DNA from: an uncultured Planctomycetales bacterium
GTDB lineage: Bacteria > Omnitrophota > Gorgyraeia > Zapsychrales > Zapsychraceae
Assembly (NCBI GenBank): GCA_964535935.1
Contig: CAZHWM010000025.1
Coordinates: forward strand, 6,159 to 70,158
DNA: 64,000 nt
Direction: 5' to 3'
Below are positions 9,793 through 44,516 of this stretch, one piece after another. The notes beneath the pieces are model-generated. The model was not told where the DNA came from. It saw only the letters and a list, made by a program, of their open reading frames with translations, and searched no databases. Each line of letters begins with the position of its first letter. Within the stretch, counting starts at the first letter, position 1. A program made the translations under genes and the position numbers.

Positions 9793-9807
9793 ATCGTTTA
9801 CTATTTT

Positions 9808-15385: not shown

Positions 15386-15397
15386 ATCCAAAAACTC

Positions 15398-15464
15398 ATT
15401 CTGCACAATTTAACCTTGTTGATTTGTGCATTTTTCACTATTTAACAAGGTTAAATTGTGAAAT
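15398..15464. repeat. Palindromic intergenic repeat, copy R1 (right end degraded)
   Basis: attctgcacaatttaaccttgttgatttgtgcatttttcactatttaacaaggttaaattgtg-aaat. Same family as the copies at 17844, 35164, 39503, 43689, 50909 and 60066. Confidence 0.9.
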
Positions 15465-28856: not shown

Positions 28857-29612
28857 CTATTCTGTACTCAACCGTGCCAATGCACCACCATCTGCTATAA
28901 GAACCTGCCCTGTAACAAACGAAGAACTGTCATTATCTGCCAAAAAATATATTACCTTAGCTATCTCTTCTGGGGTCCCCACTCTTCCAATAATATGTTT
29001 TTTACCTATACTTACCAACTGTTCAGATATACTATCCCCACATATACCAGTCCGCCTTAATCCCTCCTCAAGCATTGGTGTATTTACCGCACCTGGAACA
29101 ACTGCATTAACTCGCACCCCTACAGTGCCGAACTCAATAGCCATATTCCTTGTCAATGCTATCAAACCAGCCTTGCTGGCAGCATAAGAAGATATATCTT
29201 TAGATGATGCATATGCATGGACAGAAGATACATTGACAATACTTCCCTTAGCCCGTGCCAAAAGCCTAAATAAGCCCTTGGCAAGCAGAAACGGTGCCTC
29301 AAGGTTTACAGCAAATACAGACCGCCATTCTTCTAACTCCATATCCAACAAGGACTTACATACCTGATAAGCTGCATTGTTAACCAATATATCAAGTCTC
29401 TGATGAGAAGAGGAAATTGTAGAAATCAAATCTTCTATCTCTTCTCTCTTAGAAAGGTCTACTGAATAATATGCAGACATACATTCAGGAGCAGTCATCT
29501 TTCTTCGCCCAACGCCAATTACCTTCCACCCATTCCTAAAAAAGACATCGCATGTCTTATATCCTATCCCACTTGAAGCACCTGTTATAATAACAACTCT
29601 CTCAGTACTCAT
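28857..29612 (-). CDS. Short-chain dehydrogenase/reductase
   Basis: 251 aa. ITGASSGIG, NNAA and YAASK (Y-x3-K). Confidence 0.88.
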   Translation of the reverse strand: MSTERVVIITGASSGIGYKTCDVFFRNGWKVIGVGRRKMTAPECMSAYYSVDLSKREEIEDLISTISSSHQRLDILVNNAAYQVCKSLLDMELEEWRSVFAVNLEAPFLLAKGLFRLLARAKGSIVNVSSVHAYASSKDISSYAASKAGLIALTRNMAIEFGTVGVRVNAVVPGAVNTPMLEEGLRRTGICGDSISEQLVSIGKKHIIGRVGTPEEIAKVIYFLADNDSSSFVTGQVLIADGGALARLSTE

Positions 29613-30544
29613 TTTCCCAATCCCTCCAAAAGGTTTTTAACAGTATTCTCATGTACCCTCTCCCATGCGGACGGACTACTATTGGAATTATGCGGAGCAA
29701 GAAGCACATTATCCATCTTCAACAAAGGACTGTCTGAAGGCAACGGCTCTCGTTCAAACACATCCAGACCTACGCCTGCGACTATACCCTGATTAAGTGC
29801 TTCAACAAGATCCATTTCCTTTACTATAGCCCCCCTTGCAGTATTTATAATAAAAGGCCTCTTTTTCATCTGCTTTAAAGCGACCTTATCAATAAGATGA
29901 AAGCTATACTCATTCAAATCACAATTAAGACTAATAAAATCAGACTCTTTATAAAGATATTCCTTCTCAACCATCTCTACACCATAATAGGAAACGAAAC
30001 CTTTATCTATTTCTTTTATATCATTACCCAACAGACGCATACCAAAGGCTGATGCCTTTCTTGCCACTGCTTTACCAATATTCCCCATTCCTATAATACC
30101 TAATGTTGCCTCTTTCAAAGATATCCCTGGGATCTTCTCCCATACACCTGACTTCATTGCCTTGTCCATCCATGGAATCTTGCGGGCAAAACATAATATA
30201 TAACACATCACTGAATCAGAGACTGGTTCGGTAAAAGCATTAGGTGTGTTTTTTACATCGATATTAAATCTGGCACACGCATCTCTATCAATAGAATCTA
30301 TCCCCGTGCCCCATTTAGATATAACCTTAAGTCTCTTAGCTACAGCTAATACTTTTTCTGTAAAACGATCATCCCCACATATCACCCCATCTATATCAGA
30401 TATAACATCTAATAACTCTTTCTCACTAAGACGTTCATTCACGTCAGCAACAACCACCTCAATATCATTCTCCTCAAAAATCTCCCTATACCTATCCACT
30501 ACAGGGATAAAATAAGGCGCTGATATTAATACCTTTTTTTTCAT
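29609..30544 (-). CDS. D-isomer-specific 2-hydroxyacid dehydrogenase (phosphoglycerate dehydrogenase-like)
   Basis: 311 aa. LGIIGMGNIGKAVA, INTARG and LAPHNS. Paralogous in type to 14444-15385. Confidence 0.86.
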   Translation of the reverse strand: MKKKVLISAPYFIPVVDRYREIFEENDIEVVVADVNERLSEKELLDVISDIDGVICGDDRFTEKVLAVAKRLKVISKWGTGIDSIDRDACARFNIDVKNTPNAFTEPVSDSVMCYILCFARKIPWMDKAMKSGVWEKIPGISLKEATLGIIGMGNIGKAVARKASAFGMRLLGNDIKEIDKGFVSYYGVEMVEKEYLYKESDFISLNCDLNEYSFHLIDKVALKQMKKRPFIINTARGAIVKEMDLVEALNQGIVAGVGLDVFEREPLPSDSPLLKMDNVLLAPHNSNSSPSAWERVHENTVKNLLEGLGK

Positions 30545-31248
30545 TCTGTCCTTCCTGTTTCCTCTTTATGGTTAAAATAATATTTTGCCATAGATTCTGC
30601 TATACAAAAGTCCTCTTCATCATCAATATCTACTGCCTCGCACTTAGGTATTTCAAACATCATAGGATTATTACCTATACGATTCTTCTTACGACTAATA
30701 ACATCCTTTGTAAATATATAAATATTCGAATTCTCTTCAAATATAGGCGGCAGATCCTGTGTCTGCTCAAGCCTGTCCGGGTTATGGTTTATAGGCCTTA
30801 AATTACCATCCCATAATCTGCTCTGAATACGTGTTACACTAAACAAAGAATCATACTTATCCGAAGACAAAAATAACTCTATTGCCCTCTCAATAGTTTC
30901 TTTTTTCAACAATGGATTTGTACAATGTGTCTGAAGATAATAATCGGCGTCAACCTCTGAGATATCATGCAAAAGAATATCATTCATAGGGACCCTATCA
31001 CCCAAAAGATGTTGAGGTCTATCTATAATACGAATGCTATCACCAAACCTATGCAATGCCTTCTCTTTAATAATGGAAGAATCCGTATCAATATACACAG
31101 AATTAATAGAAGGGCATTGTAAGAGGGTCTCGATAATCCAAAAAAATAACGGCTTACCATTAAAGTTACGATAATTTTTCCCCGACACCCTTTGACTATG
31201 ACCTTTCATAGGGACCAATGCAACAATATTAACATATGGCTTCTTCAT
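30541..31248 (-). CDS. Acylneuraminate (NeuA)-type cytidylyltransferase
   Basis: 235 aa. IVALVPMKGHSQRVSGKNYRNFNGKPLFFWIIETLL, LQTHCTNPL and VDIDDEEDF are CTP_transf_3 features. Confidence 0.84.
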   Translation of the reverse strand: MKKPYVNIVALVPMKGHSQRVSGKNYRNFNGKPLFFWIIETLLQCPSINSVYIDTDSSIIKEKALHRFGDSIRIIDRPQHLLGDRVPMNDILLHDISEVDADYYLQTHCTNPLLKKETIERAIELFLSSDKYDSLFSVTRIQSRLWDGNLRPINHNPDRLEQTQDLPPIFEENSNIYIFTKDVISRKKNRIGNNPMMFEIPKCEAVDIDDEEDFCIAESMAKYYFNHKEETGRTE

Positions 31249-32663
31249 AACTGTTCCGCCGCCCTTCTTTTTGCATAAATATATCCTAACACCATTCTCT
31301 TAATCTTAACAAGCTGTCCCCATATATGTAAACGTGTAAGCAAAGCCTTTATAAACATCTTCAAACGAACAACAATATCATACCTATATATTAACTTCTC
31401 CCAATTTTGTCTGTAATATATTAACCGTTGTTTATATTCTGCAGGATAGTTTAAAACACTAGATCTCCTCTCATTAGAAAAATCATAATAAAGTTTCTCA
31501 TTAACAAGTCCCTTCTCAAAACAATAATCTCCTAATTTAGTGCCTCTATAGGGATAAAAAATATTTACTCCACTTGAAGTAGGTCTTATCTTCCTGTTCA
31601 ATCTTATTGTATCCCATATCATATCCTCTGTCTCTCCTGGGGTGCCAATAATATTCAGGGCATTCGTCTGCAATCCATATTTATGTAAAAGAGCAAAGGC
31701 TCTTATTATCTGCTCAGTCCTCATACGCCGATTCATTATTGTATTTCTCACATAATCGTTACCAGATTCCACCCCCATAGAAACCCTATAACAACCAGCC
31801 TCCCTTAACATTGCAACAAACTCCTCATCAATAACATTAGCCCTTAAAAGGCAAAAAAATCTTATCTTAATCCTTTTTTTATATTTCTCACAAAACTCCC
31901 TACGCCATTTTTTGTTAATCCCGAATATATCATCCACAATAGCTATCTTACTTATAGGATACTTTTCAATAACCTCCTCTATCTCACGTATACTTGCCTC
32001 TGGGCTGCGATAACGCGGTCTGTTGCATGGTAACCCATACGCCTTTGCTATAGCATGATTGCTGCAATAAGTACAGAGATATGGGCATCCGCGCGAAAAG
32101 AAAAAAGGCGCATACCCTACACTATTCAAAGTATGCTCAAAAAGAGATATACTTCTATCTGGTGGAGGCAATATGTCTAAATTCGTAATAAGAGGCTTAA
32201 GTCTATTTTTTATAACCTTGCCAGATTTAGAAACATAAGCGATATTATCAATATGCTTATATGAACGCCCCTTTTCCACAGCCTCAAGAAATTCTACAAA
32301 AGACTGCTCAGATTCTCCTACAAAGACAGCATCTATTGCCTTTGTTTCTGCAACACAACCCGGATTAATAGTGGTATGAACCCCGCCACATACAATAATC
32401 TTATTCGGGAAATCTCTTTTTATTAACGCAGCAATCTCCTTAACAAAATGGAACTGTGAGGAAACACTGGTAAATCCGATTACCCTTGGATTAAACCTCC
32501 GTACAGTATCAAGAACTAATTTATATTCCTCTTTTGTTTTAACAAGCACAACATCTGCTTCATGTCCACTCCTTTTAGTTACACTTATAATATATGCTAA
32601 ACCAAAAGGAAATGTATCTTCATGAAATCCATTAATATTGGTATATATAAATAATACTCTCAT
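31245..32663 (-). CDS. B12-binding-domain radical SAM enzyme (class B)
   Basis: 472 aa. The N-terminal cobalamin-binding-like Rossmann region is MRVLFIYTN...GLAYI. The CxxxCxxC cluster motif is FFSRGCPYLCTYCS. GVESGN is also present. Confidence 0.88.
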   Translation of the reverse strand: MRVLFIYTNINGFHEDTFPFGLAYIISVTKRSGHEADVVLVKTKEEYKLVLDTVRRFNPRVIGFTSVSSQFHFVKEIAALIKRDFPNKIIVCGGVHTTINPGCVAETKAIDAVFVGESEQSFVEFLEAVEKGRSYKHIDNIAYVSKSGKVIKNRLKPLITNLDILPPPDRSISLFEHTLNSVGYAPFFFSRGCPYLCTYCSNHAIAKAYGLPCNRPRYRSPEASIREIEEVIEKYPISKIAIVDDIFGINKKWRREFCEKYKKRIKIRFFCLLRANVIDEEFVAMLREAGCYRVSMGVESGNDYVRNTIMNRRMRTEQIIRAFALLHKYGLQTNALNIIGTPGETEDMIWDTIRLNRKIRPTSSGVNIFYPYRGTKLGDYCFEKGLVNEKLYYDFSNERRSSVLNYPAEYKQRLIYYRQNWEKLIYRYDIVVRLKMFIKALLTRLHIWGQLVKIKRMVLGYIYAKRRAAEQL

Positions 32664-33301
32664 TGAGTAAATAATATAGCCCGTGTAAGAGAGGCCTCTA
32701 TACCGTTAAATTTTATTGGAAGGCATACCAATTTATACCAACCTTGCTCCACTGAAGACAAATCAAGCGTCTCTAAAACAACCACCTCGGCCCCAAGAAG
32801 TATATCATGCACCCTATCCTGACCTGTGAAGCGTTGTATGGAAAGATAATCAATACCTACAAGCCGTATACCATTATCAACAATCCACTGAGCAGCATCC
32901 TCTGTCAAGGCAACAAAATCCTCATAAAAAGAATTATCTCCATCCTTCCATAGAGAAGAATTATCCGTCTTAAACAAAAGTCGTTTTGCTCCTGAAAATA
33001 AATGTGCATTGTTTTGCAAGATCTCTGCTGAAATTTCTTTTACCTTAGGCAGATACAAAACATATACTTCCCCTATCAAAATATCAAGGTCAAGGGCTTC
33101 TACTGATTTTCCACCCTTAATATAATGAGACGGAGCATCAATATGCGTACCAGTATGAACACTTCCACTAAAAAGCGTATCATTGACTCCCTCACCTGCA
33201 TCCATATCTTTTATAGCAGAAAACCTTACAGATGGAGACTCTGGCCACACTACAAGAGACTCATCTATTCCAACAGATATATCAATAATTCTTTTAGCCA
33301 T
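32660..33301 (-). CDS. Cyclase family protein (PF04199-type; kynurenine formamidase-like fold)
   Basis: 213 aa. Exact HxGTHxDxPxH motif: HTGTHIDAPSH. Confidence 0.85.
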   Translation of the reverse strand: MAKRIIDISVGIDESLVVWPESPSVRFSAIKDMDAGEGVNDTLFSGSVHTGTHIDAPSHYIKGGKSVEALDLDILIGEVYVLYLPKVKEISAEILQNNAHLFSGAKRLLFKTDNSSLWKDGDNSFYEDFVALTEDAAQWIVDNGIRLVGIDYLSIQRFTGQDRVHDILLGAEVVVLETLDLSSVEQGWYKLVCLPIKFNGIEASLTRAILFTQ

Positions 33302-34272
33302 TACTTATCTGTTTTATGAATTATCTCAGAATACCTGATTTTCAACCTATCAGAATCAGTAGCAGATTTATGATTATTTGACTTCTCAGACGGATAGTAA
33401 AAACGATCTTTTAAGAGATTCATTTCAATATTTCCACTCCTAAATCCTCTATAAGTCCCTAGAAACTGTAAAAGTCTGAACATTATAATATCCTTAATAT
33501 TCCGGCAAAACTTTTTTTCTTTTAAGGCAGCCACTGAATCAGAATAAATATTAGATATCAGGAGTCTCACAAATTCTTTACGGCTAAAGCGTTCCTCAGG
33601 ATATATACGCTTAAGTGCCATAGCCTCACGGTAATACCGATGAAAAATCTGCGAATAACTCTCATTATGGACATGTATGACTTCTGCCTTTGACTCATAT
33701 ACAATCTTATATCCTTTCTGTGTTATATTCTTTGCCCATTCTAAATCCTCTAACCCTGTAAGCTCCTCATTATATTTTATCTCTTCCCATATTCTACGTC
33801 TTATTGCTGCATTAGCATTATTACAAAAAGGATGCTTCTGCCCATTCTGAGAGACCTCAGGAAACCATTTCATAAGCAGTCGCCGTTCAGAATAAAAAGA
33901 AGAGTCACTTCCCCGTTGTTTGCCATAAACTAACCCAACCTTTTCATCATCAAAAGGCTTAAGCAGCTGCTCTGCCCAATCCTTATAAACAGGATAAACA
34001 TGCCCACTAGCTATTATCAGAAACTGCGAAGTAGCTGTCTCACATCCTATATTAAGAGATCTGCCAAAAGAAAATTCTTCCTTACTTATTTTTAAAACCT
34101 TAACAGGAAAATGAGATACAATAGATAGGGTAGCATCTGTGGAACCAGAATCAACAACAATAATCTCTTTTGGTCTTAAAGTCTGCTCCAATATGCCACT
34201 TAACAATCTGGCAATATGTTTCTCCTCATTAAAACATCTAATAATAACAGAATATTCTTTCTGCTTTCCCAT
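33301..34272 (-). CDS. Family 2 glycosyltransferase
   Basis: 323 aa. YSVIIRCFNEEKHI, IIVVDSGSTDAT and LEDLEW. Confidence 0.85.
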   Translation of the reverse strand: MGKQKEYSVIIRCFNEEKHIARLLSGILEQTLRPKEIIVVDSGSTDATLSIVSHFPVKVLKISKEEFSFGRSLNIGCETATSQFLIIASGHVYPVYKDWAEQLLKPFDDEKVGLVYGKQRGSDSSFYSERRLLMKWFPEVSQNGQKHPFCNNANAAIRRRIWEEIKYNEELTGLEDLEWAKNITQKGYKIVYESKAEVIHVHNESYSQIFHRYYREAMALKRIYPEERFSRKEFVRLLISNIYSDSVAALKEKKFCRNIKDIIMFRLLQFLGTYRGFRSGNIEMNLLKDRFYYPSEKSNNHKSATDSDRLKIRYSEIIHKTDK

Positions 34273-34346: not shown

Positions 34347-35144
34347 TTAAACTATAGCAACCGCCCTACACCATCCTGCACCTGCCTCTCTCACACGTAC
34401 AGGGAAACAACTTACTGTAAAACCATACGGTTTAGGTATAGCACCTAAATTCCCCATTCTTTCCATATGGCAAAATTCCCGTCTCCTACCTAAAAAATGA
34501 ACCGGCCATAAAAGGCTCTTATCCTTTGTCTTAAGAAACTCCTCAAACATTTTAAAACACGGAGCATCCAACCCCATAGTATCAATTCCAATCATCTTAA
34601 CTCCACAATCCAATATATATTCAACTGCCTTAGGAGTCATCCCCACATATTCAGTAACATATTCTGGCCTGCCAAGTAATTTATCCCCACCTGTATTAAT
34701 AAGAACAATATCCATTGGTTTTATCTCATAATCTATACGCTTAACTTCGTTAACTATATCCTGTTTATCTATCAAATCAGGATATCTTTTATGCGTAAAA
34801 TCAAGAACAACTCCTGGAGCATAACACCATTCGAGAGGAATCTCCTCAATACGTTTAGACGGTTTTCCCTCTGAATGGCTCCCATAATGAAATGGTGCAT
34901 CCACATGCGTCCCCATATGCACAGATGAATGAACAATCTCTAAAGAAAGCAATTCTCCATCAGGAACATCCTCAGGAGAAATAATTCGTTCCCCTTTATT
35001 AAACCTTTCCTCGCCACCTTCTTCCCCACGCATAAGCACCCAGTTAAGATGCTCCACGCCCTCTGCATGAGAGATACGATCAATAGAAGCCGCATGTGTC
35101 TCTTTTAACGTATCATCTATAGGCAAACTCAAATCAATTAACAT
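34347..35144 (-). CDS. Cyclase family protein (PF04199-type)
   Basis: Exact HxGTHxDxPxH motif: HMGTHVDAPFH. The track ORF (to 35204) starts inside repeat R3 (MKNAQINKVKLCRI...). ATG 35144 (MLIDLSLPID) has GGAAGG 8 nt upstream. Confidence 0.85.
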   Translation of the reverse strand: MLIDLSLPIDDTLKETHAASIDRISHAEGVEHLNWVLMRGEEGGEERFNKGERIISPEDVPDGELLSLEIVHSSVHMGTHVDAPFHYGSHSEGKPSKRIEEIPLEWCYAPGVVLDFTHKRYPDLIDKQDIVNEVKRIDYEIKPMDIVLINTGGDKLLGRPEYVTEYVGMTPKAVEYILDCGVKMIGIDTMGLDAPCFKMFEEFLKTKDKSLLWPVHFLGRRREFCHMERMGNLGAIPKPYGFTVSCFPVRVREAGAGWCRAVAIV

Positions 35145-35163
35145 CAAAAAATCCTTCCTATCT

Positions 35164-35231
35164 ATCCTGCACAATTTAACCTTGTTGATTTGTGCATTTT
35201 TCACAAATCAACAAGGTTAAATTGTGCAGAA
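35164..35231. repeat. Palindromic intergenic repeat, copy R3 (perfect 28-bp stem)
   Basis: atcctgcacaatttaaccttgttgatttgtgcatttttcacaaatcaacaaggttaaattgtgcagaa. The left and right arms are exact reverse complements. Confidence 0.95.
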
Positions 35232-35243: not shown

Positions 35244-35480
35244 CTAATTAGCTCCCTTTTCTTTCAAAATTTTGACAATTTCATTAAAAGAATGGGTCTT
35301 TTTTAATTCATTATCTTTTAAATCAATACCCAACTCTTTCTTAAGGCCAACAGATATTTCTACCATCTCAGTAGAATCAACATCAAAAAGGACATCAAGA
35401 CCTTTATCAGGTTCAATTTCTTCTGGTTTTACATCAATAACCTTATTTAATATCTCTTTCACTTTGTCTTCAACTGCCAC
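35244..35480 (-). CDS. Acyl carrier protein
   Basis: 78 aa, acidic. FDVDSTEMVEISVGLKKELG has the DS(L/T) phosphopantetheine attachment context (Ser36). Lies adjacent to the KS pair. Confidence 0.82.
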   Translation of the reverse strand: MAVEDKVKEILNKVIDVKPEEIEPDKGLDVLFDVDSTEMVEISVGLKKELGIDLKDNELKKTHSFNEIVKILKEKGAN

Positions 35481-35526
35481 TTTTCTCCCTCCTTTACAAA
35501 ACTTTAATACTTTATCTTAAAATTTC

Positions 35527-36762
35527 TTATTCATTTTTCTGCAAAATTAAAACACAATTAATCCCTCCCCGACCTCTATTAATAACCATTGCATTCTTTA
35601 TATCTTTATATTGAGCCTTATTAGGACAATAATCAAGATCACAGTCAGGATCTGAGTCAAAATAATTAATTGTAGGAGGGACCATCCCATGTTCCATGGC
35701 CAATACTGTAGTAATTACATCAACTGCTCCAGAGGCACCAAGCATATTACCAAAAACAGACTTTGGTGCAGAAACAGGAATTTTCTTAGCCCTATGCTCG
35801 AACACATTCTTTATTGCTTTTGTCTCTGTTACATCCCATATATCCTTTGCAGCACCGTCCGAACAAATATAATCAATGTCATCTGGTGCCAATCCTGCAT
35901 CATCTAAAGCCATCCTCATTGCCCTTGCAAGTTCAAAACCATCCTCTGCTGGATTAATCCGGTCCACTCCATCAGTTGTAGTACCAAATCCAATAATATC
36001 TGCATAAACCTTAACTCCCCTCTCCTCAACTCTATCTGGCGGCTCAAGTATTAATATCCCTGCACCTTCAGCAATGGCAAAACCATCACGATTTCTATCA
36101 AACGGACGATAAGCAGTTTCAGGGGTATCATTACGTCTGGTTAACATACCTGAAGTATTACAACACAACAAAGCATATGGAGTAACAGGGGCCTCCATGC
36201 CTCCAGCCAAAATAAAATCATTTTTGTCATGAACCAAATTCTTGGCTGCATATGCTATTGCCATTAACGAACTTGCTCTGTCCGCAACAAAGGTTTTACT
36301 ATAGCCTTTTATTCCATATCGTATAGATACCTGCCCTTGCGGCGCCGCAGGGAACCACGCAGAGGCCATAAATGGACTGACCCCCTCCCTACCTTCCAAA
36401 TAAAGGTCCCTTAACTCTGTCTCTGCATATAACCATCCCCCTATAGCATTGCCCATAAATATACCAACGCGATCAAGATTTCCTTTTGATAAATCTATTC
36501 CCGCATCTTCTATAGCCAATTCTGCTGCAACTAAAGCCATATGCGAAAAAAGATCTATCTTCTTCAATAAACGAGAAGAGACATTACTATAAGCCTCAAG
36601 TTCTTGTACATGCCCTGCTATATGCGAAGGATATTTAGATGCGTCAAAACGCTCTATCTTCTGAACAGCAGATCTACCTGCCTTAATATTTGACCAAAAC
36701 TTCCGTTTATCAATCCCACTTGGGCTAATTATCCCCATACCTGTAATAGATATTCTTTTCAT
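35527..36762 (-). CDS. Ketosynthase beta / chain-length-factor-like subunit (catalytic triad replaced)
   Basis: 411 aa with a KS fold. Aligned by eye to the adjacent KS-alpha, active-site Cys becomes Arg162 (VADRASS, codon 36277-36279), the first His becomes Asp (SDGAAKD), and the second His becomes Asn (KSVFGNMLGASG). PVSAPKS..G and NRGRGGINCVLIL resemble actinorhodin-type CLF. Confidence 0.85.
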   Translation of the reverse strand: MKRISITGMGIISPSGIDKRKFWSNIKAGRSAVQKIERFDASKYPSHIAGHVQELEAYSNVSSRLLKKIDLFSHMALVAAELAIEDAGIDLSKGNLDRVGIFMGNAIGGWLYAETELRDLYLEGREGVSPFMASAWFPAAPQGQVSIRYGIKGYSKTFVADRASSLMAIAYAAKNLVHDKNDFILAGGMEAPVTPYALLCCNTSGMLTRRNDTPETAYRPFDRNRDGFAIAEGAGILILEPPDRVEERGVKVYADIIGFGTTTDGVDRINPAEDGFELARAMRMALDDAGLAPDDIDYICSDGAAKDIWDVTETKAIKNVFEHRAKKIPVSAPKSVFGNMLGASGAVDVITTVLAMEHGMVPPTINYFDSDPDCDLDYCPNKAQYKDIKNAMVINRGRGGINCVLILQKNE

Positions 36763-36837
36763 ATTCTATTTACCTTTCAAATTATACTTTCTTTTCTTTA
36801 TATCAATATCCATATTCAAATTATTGAACAGATAAAA

Positions 36838-38100
36838 TCACTCGAATCGCTTCAAAACCATTGCAGAATGTATTCCTGAAAACCCACTACTGGTCTTTAA
36901 CATATAATTTACCCTCTTCTCCCTTGCCTTATTAGGGACATAATCTAAATCACATTCCGGGTCCGGGAATTCTTGATTAATCGTAGGAGGCAAAATATTC
37001 CTCTCAAAAATAAGCGCTCCAATTGCTAATTCAATACCATTCGCACCTGCTAATGGATGTCCTATCATAGATTTTAATGAACTTATAGGGATTTTATAAG
37101 CATAATTGCCGAAGACCATTTTATAAGCATTTGTTTCAAATACATCGTTTTGCCTTGTAGAAGATCCATGCGCATTAATATAATCTATACACTCCGGATT
37201 AATACCTGCATCTTCTAAAGCGAGCCTGACACATGCCGCCTTAGCCTCTCCTGACGGAGGCAAATCAGTCATATGATAAGCATTACATGTGGTTCCAAAC
37301 CCCACTATCTCACAATAGATACGTGCACCTCTCTTTAAAGCATGTTCCAGTTCCTCAACAACTAAGAGACCTGCACCTTCAGATATTACAAATCCATTCC
37401 TTTTTGCATCAAACGGCCTAGATGCCTTTTCAGGCTCATCATTGTGCGTTGACAATACATTTACAGTATCGAATGCACCGAATGTTATAGGTGTAAGAGG
37501 TGCCTCGCTTGCCCCAGTAATCATAACGTCTACCTCACCATCCTGAATTGCTTCATACGAAAATCCTACACAATCAGTACCGGCAGTACATCCTGTAGAT
37601 ATCGTATTACAAATCCCTTTCAATCCGTACTTAGCCGCTATCTCGCTTGAAGGGGTATTAAACATGGCAGCATCATATAAATCAGGCCTAACTATTGTAG
37701 GATCAATAGGATTTTTCCCACTATCTGTAACAAGCGCAAACTCCTCTTCCATATACTTTGTCCCGCAGATAGCATTTGCAAGAGATACTCCCATCCTCTG
37801 CTTATCTACCTTGTCAAGATCAAGCATAGAATCCTGCAGTGCCATGTCTGCGGTAACCATAGCAAACTGTACATAACGGTCCATACGTATGGCATCCTCT
37901 TTAGTTAACCCATATTTTAATGGATCAAAATCCATCACCTGTGCTGCTATCTTTGTATTAAACATCGACACATCAAAATCTGTAACCCTACGTACAGCAG
38001 AAATCCCATTAATCATGGAATTCCAACACGCCTCCTTACCAATACCATTCGGCGCAATAATCCCCACACCTGTTACAACAACTCGTCGTTTTTTCTCCAT
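36838..38100 (-). CDS. Type II polyketide synthase-like ketosynthase alpha
   Basis: 420 aa. RRVVVTGVGIIAPNG, active site ISTGCTAGTDCVG, TCNAYHMTDL, DYINAHGSSTRQND, SLKSMIGHPLGANG and PDPECDLDYVP. The HGS.TRQND and PECDLDYVP motifs match KS-alpha of aromatic PKS rather than FabF (HGTSTPxGD). Confidence 0.88.
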   Translation of the reverse strand: MEKKRRVVVTGVGIIAPNGIGKEACWNSMINGISAVRRVTDFDVSMFNTKIAAQVMDFDPLKYGLTKEDAIRMDRYVQFAMVTADMALQDSMLDLDKVDKQRMGVSLANAICGTKYMEEEFALVTDSGKNPIDPTIVRPDLYDAAMFNTPSSEIAAKYGLKGICNTISTGCTAGTDCVGFSYEAIQDGEVDVMITGASEAPLTPITFGAFDTVNVLSTHNDEPEKASRPFDAKRNGFVISEGAGLLVVEELEHALKRGARIYCEIVGFGTTCNAYHMTDLPPSGEAKAACVRLALEDAGINPECIDYINAHGSSTRQNDVFETNAYKMVFGNYAYKIPISSLKSMIGHPLAGANGIELAIGALIFERNILPPTINQEFPDPECDLDYVPNKAREKRVNYMLKTSSGFSGIHSAMVLKRFE

Positions 38101-38145: not shown

Positions 38146-39159
38146 TTATCTATTAACCGATATATCTCTTTTAAATGCCTCTTTTACTTCCTCAGGAGAA
38201 AAGAACCTACCAGTCTCCTCTACATGGTGAACCATATCAACCACCTTGCTATTTAATGGTGCTTGTTCTCGTATTTGTCTTGCCAGGCAGACAACCTCGC
38301 CATTTATAAAATCTATCTCACTTACCCTGCCACGCATTATGCTCTGCAAAATAGAACCATACAACGGCTCATTGCTAAGACCTGTTAAAGTCTTATTAAT
38401 AATCCCAGCAGCCTGATCAACAGGCATATTTACAAGCCCAAATATCCTTTCCTTTGGGAAATCAGGCAAAGAAACCACCTCAATCTTTGCCTTCTTAACA
38501 ATCTCAACACCCTCTCTTAAAAGAAAAATACTTAACCTGCAAAAATCCATATCTGAAAAGGTATCCTGCATAGACTTACCGATAAGGGCAGGTAGGCAGT
38601 TGTTAAAATTAATAAACAATTTCAACCACTTCATTCCTATAATATTCTCAGAAACAACAACATCAAATCCCTTTTTAAGAATACCTGCCACCTCATGCAC
38701 CTTAGGAGATACAGGCATAAAAGCACGTCCGATAATCCATTTCCCCTCAAAATTAAAAACTACCTCAGCCGGTCTAAGACAAGTAGCCCCAAACATCACA
38801 ATACTACTCAACACACTCTCTCTTTCAAAATGCCCTCCCAGAATATTATCCGCCTGCACGCCATTCTGTGAAGAAACCACCAAAGAATTATCAAGATACT
38901 TATTATTCTGCTCATATGCCTGTTCCAAATCCTGAGTCTTTACTGTAAAAATAGCAAGATCAGGCTCATAATCAAGCTGTGGCAATATCTCCACATTAAA
39001 TGTTTCCTGGCCACGAACACCAGACACCTTAAGCCCATTTTTCTTTATTGCCTCAACCTGCTCATTACGACCTATAAGAGTTATATCAACCCCTTCTTTA
39101 CTAAGGTATGCCGCAACTACCGAACCTATAGCGCCAGCGCCAATAACTGCTATTTTCAT
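38146..39159 (-). CDS. 2-dehydropantoate 2-reductase (ApbA/PanE) family oxidoreductase
   Basis: MKIAVIGAGAIGSVVAAYLSKEGVDITLIGR is the N-terminal Rossmann region, with an ApbA_C-like C-terminus. ATG 39159 has AGGAG 11 nt upstream. The track start, GTG 39168, is too close to that SD. Confidence 0.8.
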   Translation of the reverse strand: MKIAVIGAGAIGSVVAAYLSKEGVDITLIGRNEQVEAIKKNGLKVSGVRGQETFNVEILPQLDYEPDLAIFTVKTQDLEQAYEQNNKYLDNSLVVSSQNGVQADNILGGHFERESVLSSIVMFGATCLRPAEVVFNFEGKWIIGRAFMPVSPKVHEVAGILKKGFDVVVSENIIGMKWLKLFINFNNCLPALIGKSMQDTFSDMDFCRLSIFLLREGVEIVKKAKIEVVSLPDFPKERIFGLVNMPVDQAAGIINKTLTGLSNEPLYGSILQSIMRGRVSEIDFINGEVVCLARQIREQAPLNSKVVDMVHHVEETGRFFSPEEVKEAFKRDISVNR

Positions 39160-39174
39160 AACACACACTTCTCC

Positions 39175-39450
39175 TTACTCTTCTTCATATTTTTTATGGT
39201 CAAAACCAACATCATCCATAAGCCTTATCATAAGGCTATAAAAGGCCTTTGGGACCTCTGTCAAAAAGGCACGAACAACATCACATTCCTCGACAACAAA
39301 AGAACCCCTCTCCTTCGCATTTAACACTGCCTTCTCTGGCACAATCTGTTTAGTAATCTCTCTATGAAAAATTGGTATCTTATTAAGCATTTTATTATAT
39401 TTATTCAAACAGGCCTCATCCCATTTTAATCCTTCTACCATCTCCTGCAT
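39175..39450 (-). CDS. Small hypothetical protein (possible PCP_red-like domain)
   Basis: 91 aa. The pattern W.EA....L.KIPIF.R...........A...G...V....V..A is reminiscent of the PCP-reductase/protochlorophyllide-reductase C-terminal domain family. Weak, recalled from memory only. Confidence 0.35.
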   Translation of the reverse strand: MQEMVEGLKWDEACLNKYNKMLNKIPIFHREITKQIVPEKAVLNAKERGSFVVEECDVVRAFLTEVPKAFYSLMIRLMDDVGFDHKKYEEE

Positions 39451-39584: not shown

Positions 39585-41075
39585 CTAAAACCATGAACTA
39601 ACTAAAGCCATACCATCTAAAGAAGCATCCATACAAATATGCTTTGCCTGAGTATATTCCAAAAGCCCATCTCTTCCTAACTCCCTGCCAAAACCACTTC
39701 GCTTACATCCGCCAAAAGGGGCCTCATTGTAAAAACCACCGTAAGTATTTACCCACACCGTACCACATCTAAGTCTATCTGCAACTCGTTGGGCCTTATC
39801 GGTATCCTTACTCCATATACATGCAGCCAGGCCATATTCATTATCGTTAGCAATACTAACAGCCTCTTGTTCCGAAGAAAATTTTATAACAGATAATACA
39901 GGGCCAAATATCTCTTCTCTGGCAATAGTCATAGGATTTTTTACATCCGCAAATATTGTAGGTTCAAAATAAAATCCATTGGGATTAATCCCTTCTCCTT
40001 CTGGGACCTTCCCCCCACAGACAAGCCTTGCCCCTTCCTCTATTCCCTTCTCAACAACACTTAAAACATTATCCCTATGCCTTTTGCTTATAAGCGGACC
40101 GAATTCTGTTTCATAACTTGCAGCATCGCCTATCTTAAGCGATTGAGTCTTCTTAATAAGCAGATTTAAAAACTCATCATATATCTTATCTTCGAGAAGG
40201 AGCCTTGAGCCTGCAGTACACATTTGCCCCTGATTCATAAAAATAGCAGCCATCGTACCGCCAACAGCAGCATTTATATCACAATCTGCAAACACAATAT
40301 TAGGAGATTTTCCTCCTAATTCAAGGCATAATTTTTTTGTATTAATAGATGCCAGCTGCATTACCTTCCTACCTGTGTCTGTGCCCCCTGTAAAACTTAT
40401 CATATCCACATCACTACTTTTTATTAATTCAGCTCCAACTCCATGATCCGAACTGGGGATTATATTCAATACTCCCTCCGGCAGACCTACATCCTGAATA
40501 ATCTCAGCAAGCCGCATTATTGACACACTGGCAAAAGAAGACGGTTTAAAAACCACACTGTTGCCTACAATAAGCGCAGGGGCTGTCTTCCATCCAAACA
40601 TAATTAACGGATAATTCCAAGGTATAATACAGCCAACAACACCTATTGGTTCCCTAACAGTCTTACTCTTTACAGGCCAATTGGCAATGGTATTAACCTC
40701 ATCTTCAACCCATGATTCAACCCTACTACCAAAAAATTCAAACGTATCGGCCACTGTAGGCACATCAATAAATGTAGTCTGTTTTATAGTCTTACCTGTA
40801 TCAAGGGTCTCTAACTCTGCCAACTCATGTGCATTCTCCCTAATCAGATCTGCTATTTTTACTAAATACTGACCACGCTCCTTAATAGAGATCCTACTCC
40901 AACTCCCTCCATCAAATGCCTTACGCGCAGAAGATATTGCCTCCTGCATATCTTCTATCCTAGCATCCGCAACATAGGCAAATGGTTCCCCACAAGAAGG
41001 ATTTACACTTTCAAAATATCCTCCGCTAATAGATGCACATAACCTACCGTTCTTGAATAAATCATATCTTCTCAT
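39585..41075 (-). CDS. NAD(P)-dependent aldehyde dehydrogenase
   Basis: PWNYPL, FTGGTDTGRKV, LELGGKSP, the catalytic Cys context NQGQMCTAGSR, and EEIFGPV. ATG 41075 forms an ATGA overlap with the upstream aldolase stop. Confidence 0.9.
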   Translation of the reverse strand: MRRYDLFKNGRLCASISGGYFESVNPSCGEPFAYVADARIEDMQEAISSARKAFDGGSWSRISIKERGQYLVKIADLIRENAHELAELETLDTGKTIKQTTFIDVPTVADTFEFFGSRVESWVEDEVNTIANWPVKSKTVREPIGVVGCIIPWNYPLIMFGWKTAPALIVGNSVVFKPSSFASVSIMRLAEIIQDVGLPEGVLNIIPSSDHGVGAELIKSSDVDMISFTGGTDTGRKVMQLASINTKKLCLELGGKSPNIVFADCDINAAVGGTMAAIFMNQGQMCTAGSRLLLEDKIYDEFLNLLIKKTQSLKIGDAASYETEFGPLISKRHRDNVLSVVEKGIEEGARLVCGGKVPEGEGINPNGFYFEPTIFADVKNPMTIAREEIFGPVLSVIKFSSEQEAVSIANDNEYGLAACIWSKDTDKAQRVADRLRCGTVWVNTYGGFYNEAPFGGCKRSGFGRELGRDGLLEYTQAKHICMDASLDGMALVSSWF

Positions 41076-42079
41076 ATAATTTTCACATCCTGCCATAATT
41101 CAAAAAGCCTACTGCAAGGTGCATACCATCTTGATATCCTTGCAAAGTCACCTCGCAGGCTCATTTTCTTCTGTGTAGTTGCAACAAAGGGATCTATCTC
41201 TCTATTAAAAACCGCACGCCACACATTCTCATCCGCACTTATCAAAAATTCAACATCCTCATCATTACCTGTCTCAACAATCCTGCCATTTTCAAACTTA
41301 AAACTATAAAGCTTACCTGTTTCATTTAATTTAACTGCCAATGTCATAGTCATCTTTGTCTGAGCACCAAGCCGTGCCATCTTTTCATCATTATTAACCA
41401 AATCTACAATTGCATCTATCTGCTCTTGAGAAAACAATTCATACCTTTTATCCGACTGCTCTATTATCGCATCTTTCTCCCCATTATCTGACGAACATAT
41501 CTCTGTTTGCATCCTGTATAAATGACTTATAGCCTCTATTTTAGCTGCATCTTCTAGTGCCTGAATTAACAAAAAACAGTCAAACAACTCCCTACCTATA
41601 GCAACCACACCATGATTTCTTAATACTGTTATATTATTCTCTTTTAACAACTCAATTACAGGAGCTGTATCTGTAACCGACGGTGTCATCTGCTCAGCAG
41701 ATCTTACCCTGCCAAGATAAATCTTGGACTCAAATATACGCGGAGATAAATTTTCATGTTCTAAGAAAAATGCATTCGTATAAATTGTATGAGTATGAAT
41801 TATTGCCTGTATGTTCTCAAACTGTTTATACACATCCGTATGCAACAACCGCTCACTCGATGCCTCGCCGCCTTCCTTTACCGTTCCGTCAAGGGCCATC
41901 AACACTATATCCTCCTCCTTAAGCAGACCTAAACAAGTACTTCTTCCTGTTAATAAAATAGTGTCTTCACTAACCCTGCAACTTATATTACCATTAAGCC
42001 CTGATACCAATCCTTTATCCCACAATAACTTCCCAATTTCTATAATCTTTCTCCTTAGGCTCTCTTTGTCTTTTTTCAT
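41072..42079 (-). CDS. Class II aldolase/adducin-domain protein fused to an SCP2-like C-terminal domain
   Basis: 335 aa. N-terminal half: GLVSGLNGNISCRV, SSERLLHTDVY, IIHTHT and LRNHGVVAIG, the class II aldolase family that includes MtnB/FucA/Ald2. C-terminal ~110 aa: LAVKLNETGKLYSFKFENG...ISADENVWRAVFNREIDPFVATTQKKMSLRGDFARISRW, an SCP2-like pattern. Confidence 0.78.
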   Translation of the reverse strand: MKKDKESLRRKIIEIGKLLWDKGLVSGLNGNISCRVSEDTILLTGRSTCLGLLKEEDIVLMALDGTVKEGGEASSERLLHTDVYKQFENIQAIIHTHTIYTNAFFLEHENLSPRIFESKIYLGRVRSAEQMTPSVTDTAPVIELLKENNITVLRNHGVVAIGRELFDCFLLIQALEDAAKIEAISHLYRMQTEICSSDNGEKDAIIEQSDKRYELFSQEQIDAIVDLVNNDEKMARLGAQTKMTMTLAVKLNETGKLYSFKFENGRIVETGNDEDVEFLISADENVWRAVFNREIDPFVATTQKKMSLRGDFARISRWYAPCSRLFELWQDVKII

Positions 42080-42097: not shown

Positions 42098-42604
42098 TCA
42101 AACAACATTTGTTACATACCTTAACGGTACAGCTTCCAAAAGAGGGACATATCCCCTAATCCCTCTAGGCGCAACCCTTATGCCATTAAAATTAAAAATC
42201 TCCTTTTCATCTGCAAACTGTCCACTTTTACTACTGGCGTACGATAAGAATACCGGCACATGATGTCTTTTTGCCAAAACAGATAAAATTAACCCACCTA
42301 CAAGACACACAGCCTCTTCACCATCTCTATCCTGATAAGAAAGCCATACCTCCTTGACCATATGCTTAAAAAAAAGGAATCCTGCCATATTATCAGATAT
42401 TATTACAGGACGTATCCCTAATTTAAGAAGATGCCTGCACGCATGCTTTAAAGACTTAAGGGTCGGTCTAGCTTCCAACACAAAGACCTTCTCAATTTGC
42501 TGTTTCTTCAACCTAACGAAAAACTCATCTTCAAAAAACCCATGAATGATAACAGAACCTTTATTGTCTATATCATCTTTATTATTTATAGTACTTGAAG
42601 ACAT
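42098..42604 (-). CDS. Short eIF-2B/MtnA-family paralog (C-terminal Rossmann-like domain only)
   Basis: 168 aa. VFVLEARPTLKSLKHACRHLLKLGIRPVIISDNMAGFLF...VPVFLSYASSK...VPLLEAVPLRYVTNVV is collinear with the C-terminal half of the adjacent full-length MtnA-like protein (ATETRPYMQGAKLT..EL...G..VTLVADNA...IPFYAL...PAFDVVPRKYLT). Confidence 0.5.
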   Translation of the reverse strand: MSSSTINNKDDIDNKGSVIIHGFFEDEFFVRLKKQQIEKVFVLEARPTLKSLKHACRHLLKLGIRPVIISDNMAGFLFFKHMVKEVWLSYQDRDGEEAVCLVGGLILSVLAKRHHVPVFLSYASSKSGQFADEKEIFNFNGIRVAPRGIRGYVPLLEAVPLRYVTNVV

Positions 42605-42658: not shown

Positions 42659-43660
42659 TCAACCCACCTCTATCTCTATGCTCCCTCCTGTCAGATACTT
42701 TCTAGGAACTACATCAAAAGCAGGATAAAAGGCATCAACATTACCTCTAACAATCTTTCTGCCTCCAAACCTCAACAACTCATCCGCAGGCCTTATCTCC
42801 ACAGGGATATCATTCCCTGACGGTATCCTATTAGAGGGCTGAATAAGCGCATAGAACGGGATAGAAAACTCCTTAGCAAGCACCGCAATCTGATAAGTAC
42901 CTATCTTGTTTGCAAAATCCCCATTAGCACATGAGCGGTCTGAGCCAACAATCACCTTATTAACCAACCCATCTGCCATCAAAGAACCTATAGCGTTATC
43001 CGCCACTAAAGTCACATCTGCTCCCATTTTTTTTAACTCCCAGCAGGTCAACTTCGCCCCTTGCATATAAGGCCGTGTCTCAGTTGCAAAATAATGCACA
43101 AGCTTACCCTGCTGACTACATAACCATGCAGCCATAGCCAACTCTCCGCTTACATTACAATGAGTCAAAACCTTATCCCCATCCTCAATTACATCCGCTA
43201 TCCTTCTAACCCTATCAAGTCGTCTTTGTCTGATAGCCTCCATATACCCTAAAATACGCATACTAACAAATTCTACAAAATCCTCATCCTGTTTTATGGC
43301 CTGCATACCCCAGCCCAAACACATAGAAGTAACTTCTTTAAAAGGAAAAGTAGGCCTACTGTTCTCAATTTTCTCTGCTATATCCTCTAACAGCGACAGT
43401 AACTGTTCTGATTGTTTATATTTGCTCCCAGCCTTATCCAATTCCAACAAAAAAGTATTCAGAACAACCAAAAACTGACCGAACGCCCTGGTCTTCATCT
43501 GCCTTATGGCCTTGACAGCTTCCTTCACATCCTTAGCCTTTATATAAACTGTCTTTGCAGGCAATGAAGTCTCATCAAGAATAATAACCGCATTCCTGCT
43601 TAATCTAACCGGCCAAAATAAAGGTGATTCTTTTATCTGATCCAATCTATCAACAGACAT
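42659..43660 (-). CDS. Methylthioribose-1-phosphate / 5-deoxyribose-1-phosphate isomerase family (eIF-2B alpha/beta/delta-like, MtnA-like)
   Basis: 333 aa. THCNVSG, ATETRPYMQGAKLTCWEL, VTLVADNA, VIVGSDRSCANGDFANKIGTYQIAVLAKEFSIPFYAL and YPAFDVVP. Confidence 0.85.
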   Translation of the reverse strand: MSVDRLDQIKESPLFWPVRLSRNAVIILDETSLPAKTVYIKAKDVKEAVKAIRQMKTRAFGQFLVVLNTFLLELDKAGSKYKQSEQLLSLLEDIAEKIENSRPTFPFKEVTSMCLGWGMQAIKQDEDFVEFVSMRILGYMEAIRQRRLDRVRRIADVIEDGDKVLTHCNVSGELAMAAWLCSQQGKLVHYFATETRPYMQGAKLTCWELKKMGADVTLVADNAIGSLMADGLVNKVIVGSDRSCANGDFANKIGTYQIAVLAKEFSIPFYALIQPSNRIPSGNDIPVEIRPADELLRFGGRKIVRGNVDAFYPAFDVVPRKYLTGGSIEIEVG

Positions 43661-43760: not shown

Positions 43761-44516
43761 TTAGTTAGATTGATTTAGCCCTTTTATAACATTAAAAGCA
43801 ATATTAATCATTGCAGTTTCTGCCATATAATAATTTGGGTTCATAAACCCCATCTCACCTGTAATAACATTATCACTAACTGCCAACATCACTGCAGCAG
43901 GTATATTATACGTTTGAGCAATCGTCAAAAATGCTGCAGTTACCATGTCAACTGCAATCGCACCATCATCAACCGCCCTGCCAACAAACTCACGCGTCTC
44001 TTTTAATATTGCATCTGTTGTCCAACAACTCCCAACATGCACCTTACACGAAGCATCCTCAGCTGCTTTAATAAACTCATCTGTCAAAGATTTATCTGCA
44101 GTAGGGACAAAATCCTTCTCAACATAATACTGAGTTACACCTTCTCCTCTTAGCGCTGTGCTGACCACTACTAAATCCCCGACCTGTATATCCTCACGCA
44201 ATGCACCGCAACTACCTATACGCAATAAATAGCCAACTTGCGCATTACACAATATTTCCGTGGTTATCGCTGTATCTGCTGAAAAACGACCACCATTAAT
44301 AGTAGTAACCTTTATTCCATCGAAAAAACCTGTATACATCGTATATTCCATAAATGAAAAATTTTTAACAGGTTGCTCAAGCTTCTTTACAACCGCCTCC
44401 ATCCTATCTTTGGGCCCAGGCACAATAGCATACCTGCCAACATCTTCGGCCCTAAGCTGGACCATCTCCATCAAATCTTTTCCTGTCATATGAACATCTT
44501 TTCGCATCTGAGACAT
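43761..44516 (-). CDS. Nucleoside phosphorylase, PNP_UDP_1 family (purine/uridine/MTA-type)
   Basis: 251 aa. GPKDRMEAV, TTINGGRFSADTAITTEIL, LLRIGSCGAL, VGDLVV and AVDMVTAA. Confidence 0.8.
   Translation of the reverse strand: MSQMRKDVHMTGKDLMEMVQLRAEDVGRYAIVPGPKDRMEAVVKKLEQPVKNFSFMEYTMYTGFFDGIKVTTINGGRFSADTAITTEILCNAQVGYLLRIGSCGALREDIQVGDLVVVSTALRGEGVTQYYVEKDFVPTADKSLTDEFIKAAEDASCKVHVGSCWTTDAILKETREFVGRAVDDGAIAVDMVTAAFLTIAQTYNIPAAVMLAVSDNVITGEMGFMNPNYYMAETAMINIAFNVIKGLNQSN

Follow-up and report, generated by a model that had tools for sequence, protein, structure and literature searches.

A probable type II polyketide synthase-like operon, accompanied by nucleoside-processing genes, in the candidate phylum Omnitrophota

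Type II polyketide synthases (PKSs) are usually patchy accessory clusters, and most of them come from actinomycetes. Their basic organization is illustrated by the actinorhodin minimal PKS (1TQY), in which a catalytic ketosynthase (KS-alpha) is followed by a non-catalytic paralogue, the chain-length factor (CLF), and by an acyl carrier protein (ACP). In this and other classical CLFs the position of the active-site cysteine is taken by a Gln, which serves decarboxylative priming. A described non-actinobacterial KS/CLF/ACP system is the anthraquinone (AQ-256) type II PKS of Photorhabdus luminescens, AntA-I (6SMO/6SMP), where the classical Gln is absent and AntE has Asp instead, and where minimal PKS activity depends on AntG, an adenylate-forming 'CoA ligase' (PMC6638757). 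The same 2019 study found that non-actinobacterial KSs form a clade, whereas the CLFs form separate clades. In a 2023 catalogue of CLFs, KS-CLF hits are recorded for 14 phyla, one of them Candidatus Omnitrophica, whose hits fall in a non-actinobacterial clade of poor support close to FabF and come without functional analysis (PMC10132072). For Omnitrophota, 'ladderane' calls by antiSMASH have also been reported (PMC9902471). A literature search on Omnitrophota in combination with ketosynthase or polyketide returned catalogue-level mentions only. Here we describe a KS, a CLF-like partner and an ACP encoded in a 64-kb stretch of DNA (the window) from an uncultured member of this phylum. The presence of such pairs in Omnitrophota is already known, but the operon around them, its conservation and the nucleoside-processing module that it contains appear to be undescribed.

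The three genes are consecutive open reading frames (ORFs) on the minus strand, at exactly the coordinates at which a preliminary description of this DNA had placed a minimal type II PKS (Table 1). We consider it reasonably likely that they form the minimal core of a conserved type II PKS-like operon of the candidate phylum Omnitrophota. When species-representative genomes were scanned with the KS, 453 matching stretches were obtained, and the best 80 (77–87% KS identity) were compared as loci. All 80 belong to Omnitrophota-type metagenome-assembled genomes (MAGs), some of them labelled 'uncultured Planctomycetales' by automated pipelines, and homology mapping of all ORFs revealed one gene order in them. 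This canonical order is (PadR), AMP-ligase, nucleoside phosphorylase, MtnA-like isomerase, short IF-2B, class II aldolase-SCP2, aldehyde dehydrogenase, B12-radical SAM enzyme (BchE/HpnJ-like; SAM, S-adenosylmethionine), 91-aa protein, (171-aa protein), ApbA-like reductase, (NTF2/SnoaL-like protein), KS, partner, ACP, PF04199 cyclase, 152-aa SRPBCC-like protein, major facilitator superfamily (MFS) transporter, ketoreductase (KR)-like short-chain dehydrogenase/reductase (SDR), PC4 and Amidohydro_2. Synteny is near-invariant over the 13 genes present in the window and about 18–20 in most species, and no other proteins of the operon are as well conserved as the KS and its partner. Counted over the loci that reach the position concerned, the AMP-ligase occurs in 41/49, the phosphorylase in 50/55, the isomerase in 52/56, the short IF-2B in 54/58, the aldehyde dehydrogenase in 59/59, the 91-aa protein in 71/73 and the ApbA reductase, always just 5' of the KS, in 75/76.

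The maintenance of a KS/CLF/ACP/cyclase core at 77–87% identity and in one order, in 80 or more species of Omnitrophota, suggests that its product is of central importance to these organisms, which are uncultured and possibly predatory or symbiotic nanobacteria. The window carries the conserved operon from position 46128 down to the cyclase at 34347. The operon's B12-radical SAM gene is missing at its usual place in the window and in six other loci.

The KS has the intact Cys-His-His triad that had been claimed for it; the Cys in STGCTAG and the His residues in NAHGSST and MIGHPLA were all confirmed in the sequence and in the alignment. The first-site Cys is present in 80/80 related loci, and a pattern search recovered the full triad in 57 of them. 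The KS-alpha-like motifs that the preliminary description had named proved to be real: CNAYHMT, AHGSxTRQND, DPECDLDYVP and SGFxGxxSAMVL are common to the KS and actinorhodin KS-alpha in HMMER alignments, and CNAYHMT, AHGSxTxQND and SGFxGxxSAMVL are shared with AntD as well. A segment of five residues is found in the KS, in actinorhodin KS-alpha (1TQY_A) and in AntD, whereas FabF of Bacillus subtilis lacks it. Sequence identity amounts to 51% with the KS of an Azospirillum type II PKS, 47–49% with Streptomyces KS-alpha proteins, 46% with AntD, 45% with actinorhodin KS-alpha and 44% with B. subtilis FabF, and to 33% and 28% with the two aryl-polyene KSs of Escherichia coli CFT073. The top plasmid matches are KSs from aromatic-type clusters, including Streptomyces clusters in which a KS-alpha is accompanied by an annotated CLF and by TcmI or aromatase/cyclase genes.

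The gene for the partner begins 75 bp past the KS gene, and its product is 34% identical to the KS. The replacement of all three catalytic residues that had been proposed earlier was found at the aligned positions: Arg162 (in VADRASS) for the Cys, Asp (CSDGAA) for the first His and Asn (FGNMLG) for the second. Arg162 is invariant among the 120 closest homologues. Of the best matches to the partner, all metagenome or MAG proteins, every one with a named source is Candidatus Omnitrophota/Omnitrophica or a hydrothermal vent metagenome; in a 50%-identity library the family is reduced to a single representative (58% identical), with the next relatives at ≤44%. Identity to CLFs encoded on Streptomyces plasmids is 31–33%. 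The idea that the exchange of Cys for Arg is itself unusual did not survive comparison, since Arg occupies the dead Cys site in 13 of 19 CLF-clade 50%-identity representatives, and likewise in the partners from the plasmid-borne type II PKS clusters of Azospirillum brasilense and Bacillus bombysepticus. At the same site, Gln is found in the Streptomyces reference CLFs and Asp in AntE. Judged from its sequence, with Arg instead of Gln, the partner belongs to the CLF clade as a non-classical, Arg-type member. That Arg rather than Gln is usual at the dead site of the nearest non-actinobacterial CLF-like proteins bears on the way in which such systems are primed. Asp or Glu takes the place of the first His in most Arg-type partners and, since the triad residues of ketosynthases sit close together, an Arg-Asp/Glu salt bridge in the dead pocket may be envisaged. 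An AlphaFold2 model of the partner (29 sequences, 76–92% identical) reached a pLDDT of 64 and a pTM of 0.73, and was too poor to be used for the Arg162/Asp arrangement. In some Omnitrophota a predicted membrane ORF of 96 aa lies between the KS and partner genes (9697–9987 in locus L001); it is not present in the window.

Neighbour-joining (NJ) trees based on simple distances were constructed with 72 and then 77 sequences. Three sequences, of actinorhodin KS-alpha, AntD and B. subtilis FabF, were taken from PDB alignments; the others comprised FabF of E. coli, the pair of aryl-polyene KSs from E. coli CFT073 (used as outgroup in the second tree), annotated Streptomyces KS-alpha/CLF pairs, the Azospirillum and Bacillus plasmid pairs, and 50%-identity representatives nearest to the partner. 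In the two trees the KS was placed in a KS-alpha-type group with 94–99% bootstrap; the 99% group of 17 sequences includes actinorhodin KS-alpha, two Streptomyces KS-alpha proteins, AntD and other non-actinobacterial KSs, and AntD falls in the same non-actinobacterial subclade as the KS of the window (94% bootstrap). The partner was placed in a group of 29 that contains all degenerate partners, classical Gln-CLFs included (99–100%). After 27 columns around the catalytic sites had been dropped, the KS-alpha and CLF groups kept 90% and 95%, respectively. The earlier assignment to the type II KS-alpha/CLF lineage was thereby upheld (bootstrap 99% and 100%), with neither protein placed inside FabF or the aryl-polyene KSs.

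A rival explanation is that both proteins are the organism's housekeeping FabF enzymes. Conservation of 77–87% is typical of core genes, and both proteins exceed the cut-off of the FabF subfamily model PRK07314 (455.6 and 392.5 bits; cut-off 387), which is why public records label them FabF/KASII. The fabF equivalog model TIGR03150, on the other hand, gives 472.7 bits for the KS and 403.8 for the partner, both under its cut-off of 493.75, the three catalytic residues are gone from the partner and from each of its examined homologues, the ACP scores 23–34 bits with AcpP models that have cut-offs of 65–146, and the NJ trees set both proteins apart from FabF. The genomic context that a housekeeping role would suggest was also looked for, and no fab genes (fabH, fabD, fabG, fabZ, fabI) occur anywhere in the 64-kb window. 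We regard the FabF explanation as extremely improbable. Still, some results weigh against a clean separation from FabF. The passing of PRK07314 is one; another is that the KS is nearly equidistant in pairwise scores from actinorhodin KS-alpha (394.6 bits; AntD 386.7) and B. subtilis FabF (382.8), so that of the earlier statement that the KS does not match FabF the part on motifs and indel stands, while the raw scores do not bear it out. The partner scores higher with FabF (316 bits) than with the actinorhodin CLF (1TQY_B, 238 bits), and keeps a much higher FabF similarity than AntE does. The trees, moreover, are simple-distance NJ trees with a sampling skewed to the nearest relatives of the partner and with ApeC, Iga11/12 and AmcF/G left out. 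Since both proteins are publicly annotated as FabF, Arg-type pairs have a bearing on how genome-mining tools separate PKSs from fatty acid synthases.

The ACP had been described as a discrete protein with a DS(T) site, and indeed it matches PF00550 and has its phosphopantetheine serine in DVDSTEMVE. The DSTE(M/L)VE motif is common to this ACP and those of the Azospirillum and Bacillus type II PKS clusters. The preliminary description had noted the lack of a TcmN/TcmI-type aromatase or cyclase. Whereas neither a TcmN/ActVII-type SRPBCC aromatase/cyclase nor a TcmI-type cyclase was found in the window, the gene that immediately follows the ACP encodes a PF04199 protein that is 48% identical to a cyclase of the B. 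bombysepticus plasmid type II PKS, so that the absence of any cyclase-family gene cannot be maintained. The protein is 70% identical to its Omnitrophota orthologues, its gene is present in 57/58 loci, and its true start is probably the Met at 35144. It shows remote kinship to kynurenine formamidase and isatin hydrolase in the PDB (20–36 bits). On these grounds it can be regarded as a putative PKS-associated cyclase beside the minimal PKS, and it is the last gene of the conserved core in the window. Canonical operons carry SRPBCC-like and NTF2/SnoaL-like genes in addition; the 152-aa SRPBCC-like protein gives a full-length but sub-threshold match to Polyketide_cyc2 (23.1 bits, against a threshold of 27.4), and in the divergent cluster L090, described below, the orthologous position is taken by Polyketide_cyc2.

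Arg-type pairs with a DSTE-motif ACP occur in three other clusters, of Bacillus bombysepticus (NZ_CP085408), Azospirillum brasilense (NZ_CP012917) and L092, an unrelated 6-Mb genome, where the KS is 47–51% and the Arg-type partner 34–42% identical to the proteins of the window. Both the Bacillus cluster and L092 have the PF04199 cyclase, which the Azospirillum cluster lacks. L092 combines KS, Arg-type partner, PF04199 cyclase, SRPBCC, Amidohydro_2 and ACP with a FabH-like KSIII, which stands in place of the nucleoside module and ligase; the Azospirillum plasmid cluster consists of SRPBCC, SDR, KS, Arg-type CLF, ACP, four ABM monooxygenases and a phosphopantetheinyl transferase (PPTase). These are sporadic accessory clusters, with methyltransferases, ABM monooxygenases, PPTases or KSIII and without nucleoside module, ligase or ApbA, whereas the Omnitrophota operon is kept across the phylum. 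The Ant cluster shares with the latter an adenylate-forming ligase, and further has a cyclase, an aromatase/cyclase (ARO/CYC) and a KR. It offers no counterpart of the nucleoside phosphorylase, isomerase, aldolase and aldehyde dehydrogenase, of the ApbA-like reductase or of the B12-radical SAM enzyme of most species, while the operon in the window has no PPTase or AntI-type lyase. The system can best be classed as a type II PKS with a non-classical KS/CLF pair of the Arg type and an accessory module that is without precedent.

This module occupies the part of the operon upstream of the KS, where the preliminary description had seen sugar-activation genes; the proteins actually encoded there belong to the nucleoside phosphorylase, MtnA-like isomerase, class II aldolase, aldehyde dehydrogenase and ApbA-like reductase families. 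The phosphorylase matches DeoD-type purine nucleoside phosphorylase, uridine phosphorylase and Sulfolobus methylthioadenosine phosphorylase in the PDB (66–81 bits). The isomerase has methylthioribose-1-phosphate isomerases as best PDB matches and retains the THCN Cys and the GxDR Asp. A short IF-2B accompanies the full-length MtnA-like gene in practically all loci, and does so even in the reshuffled cluster L090 discussed below. The best NCBIfam match of the aldolase is a FucA-type aldolase (115 bits), and its fusion to an SCP2 domain hints that its substrate bears a hydrophobic group; the 120 best homologues of this fusion protein (57–91% identical) are all from metagenomes or MAGs, and every one with a named source is Omnitrophota/Omnitrophica or a hydrothermal vent metagenome. 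Such enzyme families are known from the dihydroxyacetone phosphate (DHAP) shunt (MtnP or Pfs/MtnK, MtnA, Ald2; DrdK/DrdI/DrdA), a pathway that leads from 5'-deoxynucleosides to DHAP plus an aldehyde (PMC6079011, PMC12632272). Nucleoside cleavage, MtnA-type isomerase and FucA-like aldolase families are alike in both, and the catalytic residues of the isomerase are present, with all scores below equivalog cut-offs. The module of the window differs in having an extra half-length IF-2B, an SCP2-fused aldolase and a following aldehyde dehydrogenase (or aldehyde:ferredoxin oxidoreductase, AFOR), and in its location in a PKS operon. A literature search on type II PKS with MtnA, nucleoside phosphorylase or class II aldolase yielded nothing relevant.

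From this gene anatomy a scheme for chain synthesis can be proposed. The KS and its partner would form a heterodimer, with the KS condensing malonyl-ACP units onto a chain carried by the ACP and the partner setting the shape of the tunnel; in the partner, Arg162 and the Asp that replaces the first His would probably fill the dead active site as a salt bridge. Priming would then not proceed by Gln-dependent decarboxylation. Instead, the adenylate-forming ligase could load a carboxylic acid onto the ACP, as is done in type II systems by AntG (PMC6638757) and AmcH (PMC10698177). This acid may derive from a 5'-modified nucleoside via the operon's own DHAP-shunt-like module, through phosphorolysis, isomerization of the ribose-1-phosphate to the ribulose-1-phosphate, aldol cleavage to DHAP and an aldehyde by the aldolase with its SCP2 domain, and oxidation by the aldehyde dehydrogenase. 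The PF04199 cyclase would fold or release the chain and, in most species, the SRPBCC-like, NTF2-like, KR-like SDR and Amidohydro_2 proteins may act as well, to give a small phenolic or cyclized product that is exported by the MFS transporter. The route from nucleoside to aldehyde, acid and acyl-ACP starter, taken alone, is a tentative possibility. If functional, the module would represent a new way to make a starter unit, and by-product chemistry of SAM and radical SAM enzymes would feed polyketide priming directly, a route that has not been described for any PKS. The more far-reaching combination of such a starter from a SAM-derived 5'-modified nucleoside with a near-universal, vertically inherited type II PKS of a whole ultra-small, possibly host-dependent phylum seems doubtful to us.

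The association of the module with the PKS is illustrated by L090, a divergent cluster (partner 58% identical) that was covered from MMPL to aldolase-SCP2 and has the same families in a different order: MMPL, LolA-like DUF1329, B12-radical SAM, AFOR, ApbA, TIGR04076, KS, partner, ACP, cyclase, Polyketide_cyc2, MFS, AFOR, Amidohydro_2, FAD oxidase, phosphorylase, isomerase, short IF-2B and aldolase-SCP2. Functional coupling of the module to the PKS is favoured by the persistence of co-clustering through this reshuffling and by the substitution of AFORs for the aldehyde dehydrogenase, which suggests a need for an aldehyde/acid step. In L092, where a FabH-like KSIII is present instead, module and ligase are missing together, in line with such coupling. 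Between ApbA and KS, L090 has a tandem TIGR04076-family protein (8029–8619), where Omnitrophota loci have the 91-aa, 171-aa or NTF2-like proteins; the 91-aa protein gave no NCBIfam match, and its membership of TIGR04076 was rejected.

Not all data favour the proposed starter route. The module could be a co-located housekeeping salvage pathway, and the nearest solved structures of the ligase are FadD5, feruloyl-CoA synthetase and 4-coumarate ligase, which makes acetate from 5'-deoxyadenosine an unlikely substrate, since to judge from its sequence the enzyme resembles medium-chain or aryl acid ligases. The window, furthermore, is without SRPBCC-like, KR-like SDR, Amidohydro_2 and MFS genes, and its product may differ from that of other species. 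In the salvage alternative, phosphorylase, isomerase, aldolase and aldehyde dehydrogenase would be an ordinary DHAP shunt for radical-SAM by-products, the PKS would be primed by acetyl or malonyl units, and the ligase would have another role, such as ACP activation or product handling. Families and catalytic residues do match the published shunt (PMC6079011), the operon of most species includes a B12-radical SAM enzyme as source of 5'-deoxyadenosine, and the other clusters with an Arg-type CLF (Azospirillum, Bacillus, L092) manage without such a module. Yet species that lack the operon's radical SAM gene, the window included, still keep the nucleoside module, which also remains with the PKS genes in L090 despite the exchange of aldehyde dehydrogenase for AFOR. 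An SCP2 domain on the aldolase, together with source-named homologues restricted to Omnitrophota and vent metagenomes, would be unexpected for a general salvage enzyme, and the ligase is not acetyl-CoA-synthetase-like. We place the salvage explanation on the unlikely side, while accepting that it has real arguments in its favour.

Coming back to the type II PKS assignment, its product need not be aromatic, and a further explanation is that the pair carries out a few elongation and cyclization steps, as in the biosynthesis of cispentacin or coronafacic acid, or belongs to a reducing type II system for an unusual lipid. In the cispentacin/coronafacic-acid system (AmcB, AmcF-AmcG, AmcH) an adenylating enzyme loads an unusual acid on a discrete ACP and a KS/KS-like heterodimer elongates it (PMC10698177), and the operon's ligase, ACP, KS and KS-like partner make up just the minimal AmcH/B/F/G set. 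Reductases (ApbA-like, SDR) are conserved in the operon, the MMPL and LolA-like genes of L090 suggest lipid export, and the published 'ladderane' calls for Omnitrophota biosynthetic gene clusters (PMC9902471) may point in the same direction. However, the pair scores 157.8 and 147.9 bits with the NCBIfam AmcF model NF058662, which has a cut-off of 325, there is no AmcE-type hot-dog enzyme or aminotransferase in the window, and the KS groups with iterative aromatic KS-alpha proteins. Cyclase, SRPBCC-like, NTF2-like and Amidohydro_2 genes, moreover, are typical of aromatic pathways. A 'ladderane-type' lipid cluster was considered separately and is not supported, as the 'lipid biosynthesis B12-radical SAM' model TIGR04072 gives 72–101 bits against a cut-off of 360, and the operon is without a dehydratase or enoyl reductase. 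We judge a non-aromatic system of this kind to be unlikely.

On the other side of the PKS genes, the cyclase is followed in the window by genes for a glycosyltransferase of family GT2, a second PF04199 protein (arylformamidase-like, 23% identical to the first), a B12-radical SAM enzyme, a PseF-like cytidylyltransferase, a 2-hydroxyacid dehydrogenase and an SDR. The preliminary description had regarded the PKS as embedded in an envelope-glycan operon. This view is not supported, as the 80 loci show a fixed operon without these GT2 and tail genes, and the setting is shared only by a sister MAG (L094) with a 92% identical partner. The GT2-to-SDR genes mark the beginning of a surface-polysaccharide locus of about 34 kb (1288–34272), co-directional on the minus strand, with GDP-mannose 4,6-dehydratase, epimerases, Wzy_C, Bac_transf, WecG and GT1/GT2 genes, as well as HpcH aldolase, transaldolase, SIS, HAD and methyltransferase genes. 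Thus, the arrangement on the glycan side is real but lineage-specific, and we read the position of the operon, which in this genome and its sister is without the canonical tail genes, next to a polysaccharide locus as adjacency, not as pathway membership. The alternative is that a polyketide or acyl chain is put on a surface glycan or lipid, with the GT2-to-SDR genes belonging to the same pathway and replacing the canonical tail genes. The genes are co-directional, the gap between cyclase and GT2 is 74 bp and has no terminator-like site, so that co-transcription with the glycan genes may occur, and the arrangement is retained in the independent sister MAG. The lineage has also lost the operon's B12-radical SAM enzyme and SDR and has unrelated ones downstream, so that non-orthologous replacement can be envisaged; their interpretation as relocated operon orthologues was rejected at identities of 21–22% and 26%. 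Moreover, the aryl-polyene clusters of E. coli join KSs with GT2, MMPL and LolA-like genes, and L090 has MMPL and a LolA-like DUF1329. Against this stand the absence of the GT2-to-SDR genes from all 80 other loci and a repetition of the cytidylyltransferase/2-hydroxyacid dehydrogenase pair (30541–31248 with 29609–30544) 14 kb further on, in the classical polysaccharide locus (15451–16257 with 14444–15406), which fits sugar metabolism. A promoter-like site (11/12 positions, 34320–34293) in the gap before GT2 is one of the two best in the region, but it is a hint only, as the counts in the promoter and terminator scan were not above those for shuffled sequence. Altogether, a glycan- or lipid-linked polyketide appears quite improbable.

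The features of the window that bear on the type II PKS-like operon are collected in Table 1. The PadR-family protein is likely the regulator of the conserved operon, its orthologues (47–74% identity) being located immediately upstream of the AMP-ligase in 8/80 loci and in one other Omnitrophota contig.

Table 1 Genes of the type II PKS-like operon and its neighbours in the window
Feature	Coordinates	Strand	Family matches and remarks
PadR-family regulator	47050..47565	-	PF03551
Adenylate-forming acyl ligase (FadD / 4CL / MenE-like), first gene of the operon	44572..46128	-	PF00501, PF13193
Nucleoside phosphorylase, hexameric DeoD / uridine phosphorylase type	43761..44516	-	PF01048
MtnA-like (5-substituted) ribose-1-phosphate isomerase	42659..43660	-	PF01008; NCBIfam MtnA subfamily, 224 bits
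Short IF-2B paralogue (C-terminal half of MtnA fold)	42098..42604	-	PF01008, profile positions 131-271 of 280
Class II aldolase fused to SCP2 lipid-binding domain	41072..42079	-	PF00596, PF02036
NAD(P)-dependent aldehyde dehydrogenase	39585..41096	-	PF00171, 573 bits
Conserved 91-aa protein	39175..39450	-	weak DUF2621 match only
ApbA/PanE-family (2-dehydropantoate reductase-like) oxidoreductase	38146..39168	-	PF02558, PF08546
KS, KS-alpha type, 420 aa	36838..38100	-	PF00109, PF02801
Non-catalytic KS paralogue, Arg-type CLF-like partner, 411 aa	35527..36762	-	PF00109, PF02801
Discrete ACP, 78 aa	35244..35480	-	PF00550, E = 6e-8
PF04199 'cyclase family' protein	34347..35204	-	PF04199, 108.6 bits; HxGTHxDxPxH motif
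Lineage-specific neighbours (GT2 to SDR), outside the conserved operon	28857..34272	-	

In the window, PadR and the AMP-ligase are parted by a toxin-antitoxin-type pair of a nucleotidyltransferase (NTase) and an NTase-substrate-binding (HEPN-like) protein (46265–46967). On another contig of Omnitrophota the same operon is interspersed with HicAB, two NTase/HEPN pairs and a gene of the magnetosome-type MamF_MmsF family, which lie between its genes. Two large proteins of the polysaccharide locus, of 702 aa (26719–28827) and 605 aa (24196–26013), have no Pfam domain; the shorter one weakly resembles NCBIfam families named 'surface carbohydrate biosynthesis protein' (TIGR04326, 50.8 bits), and a RadC gene (26017–26712) lies between the two. 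All ORFs taken as genes in the 64 kb are on the minus strand, the GC content is about 36%, and the GC skew of −0.16 to −0.46 across the window (1–64000) fits a single replichore with a strong gene-strand bias.

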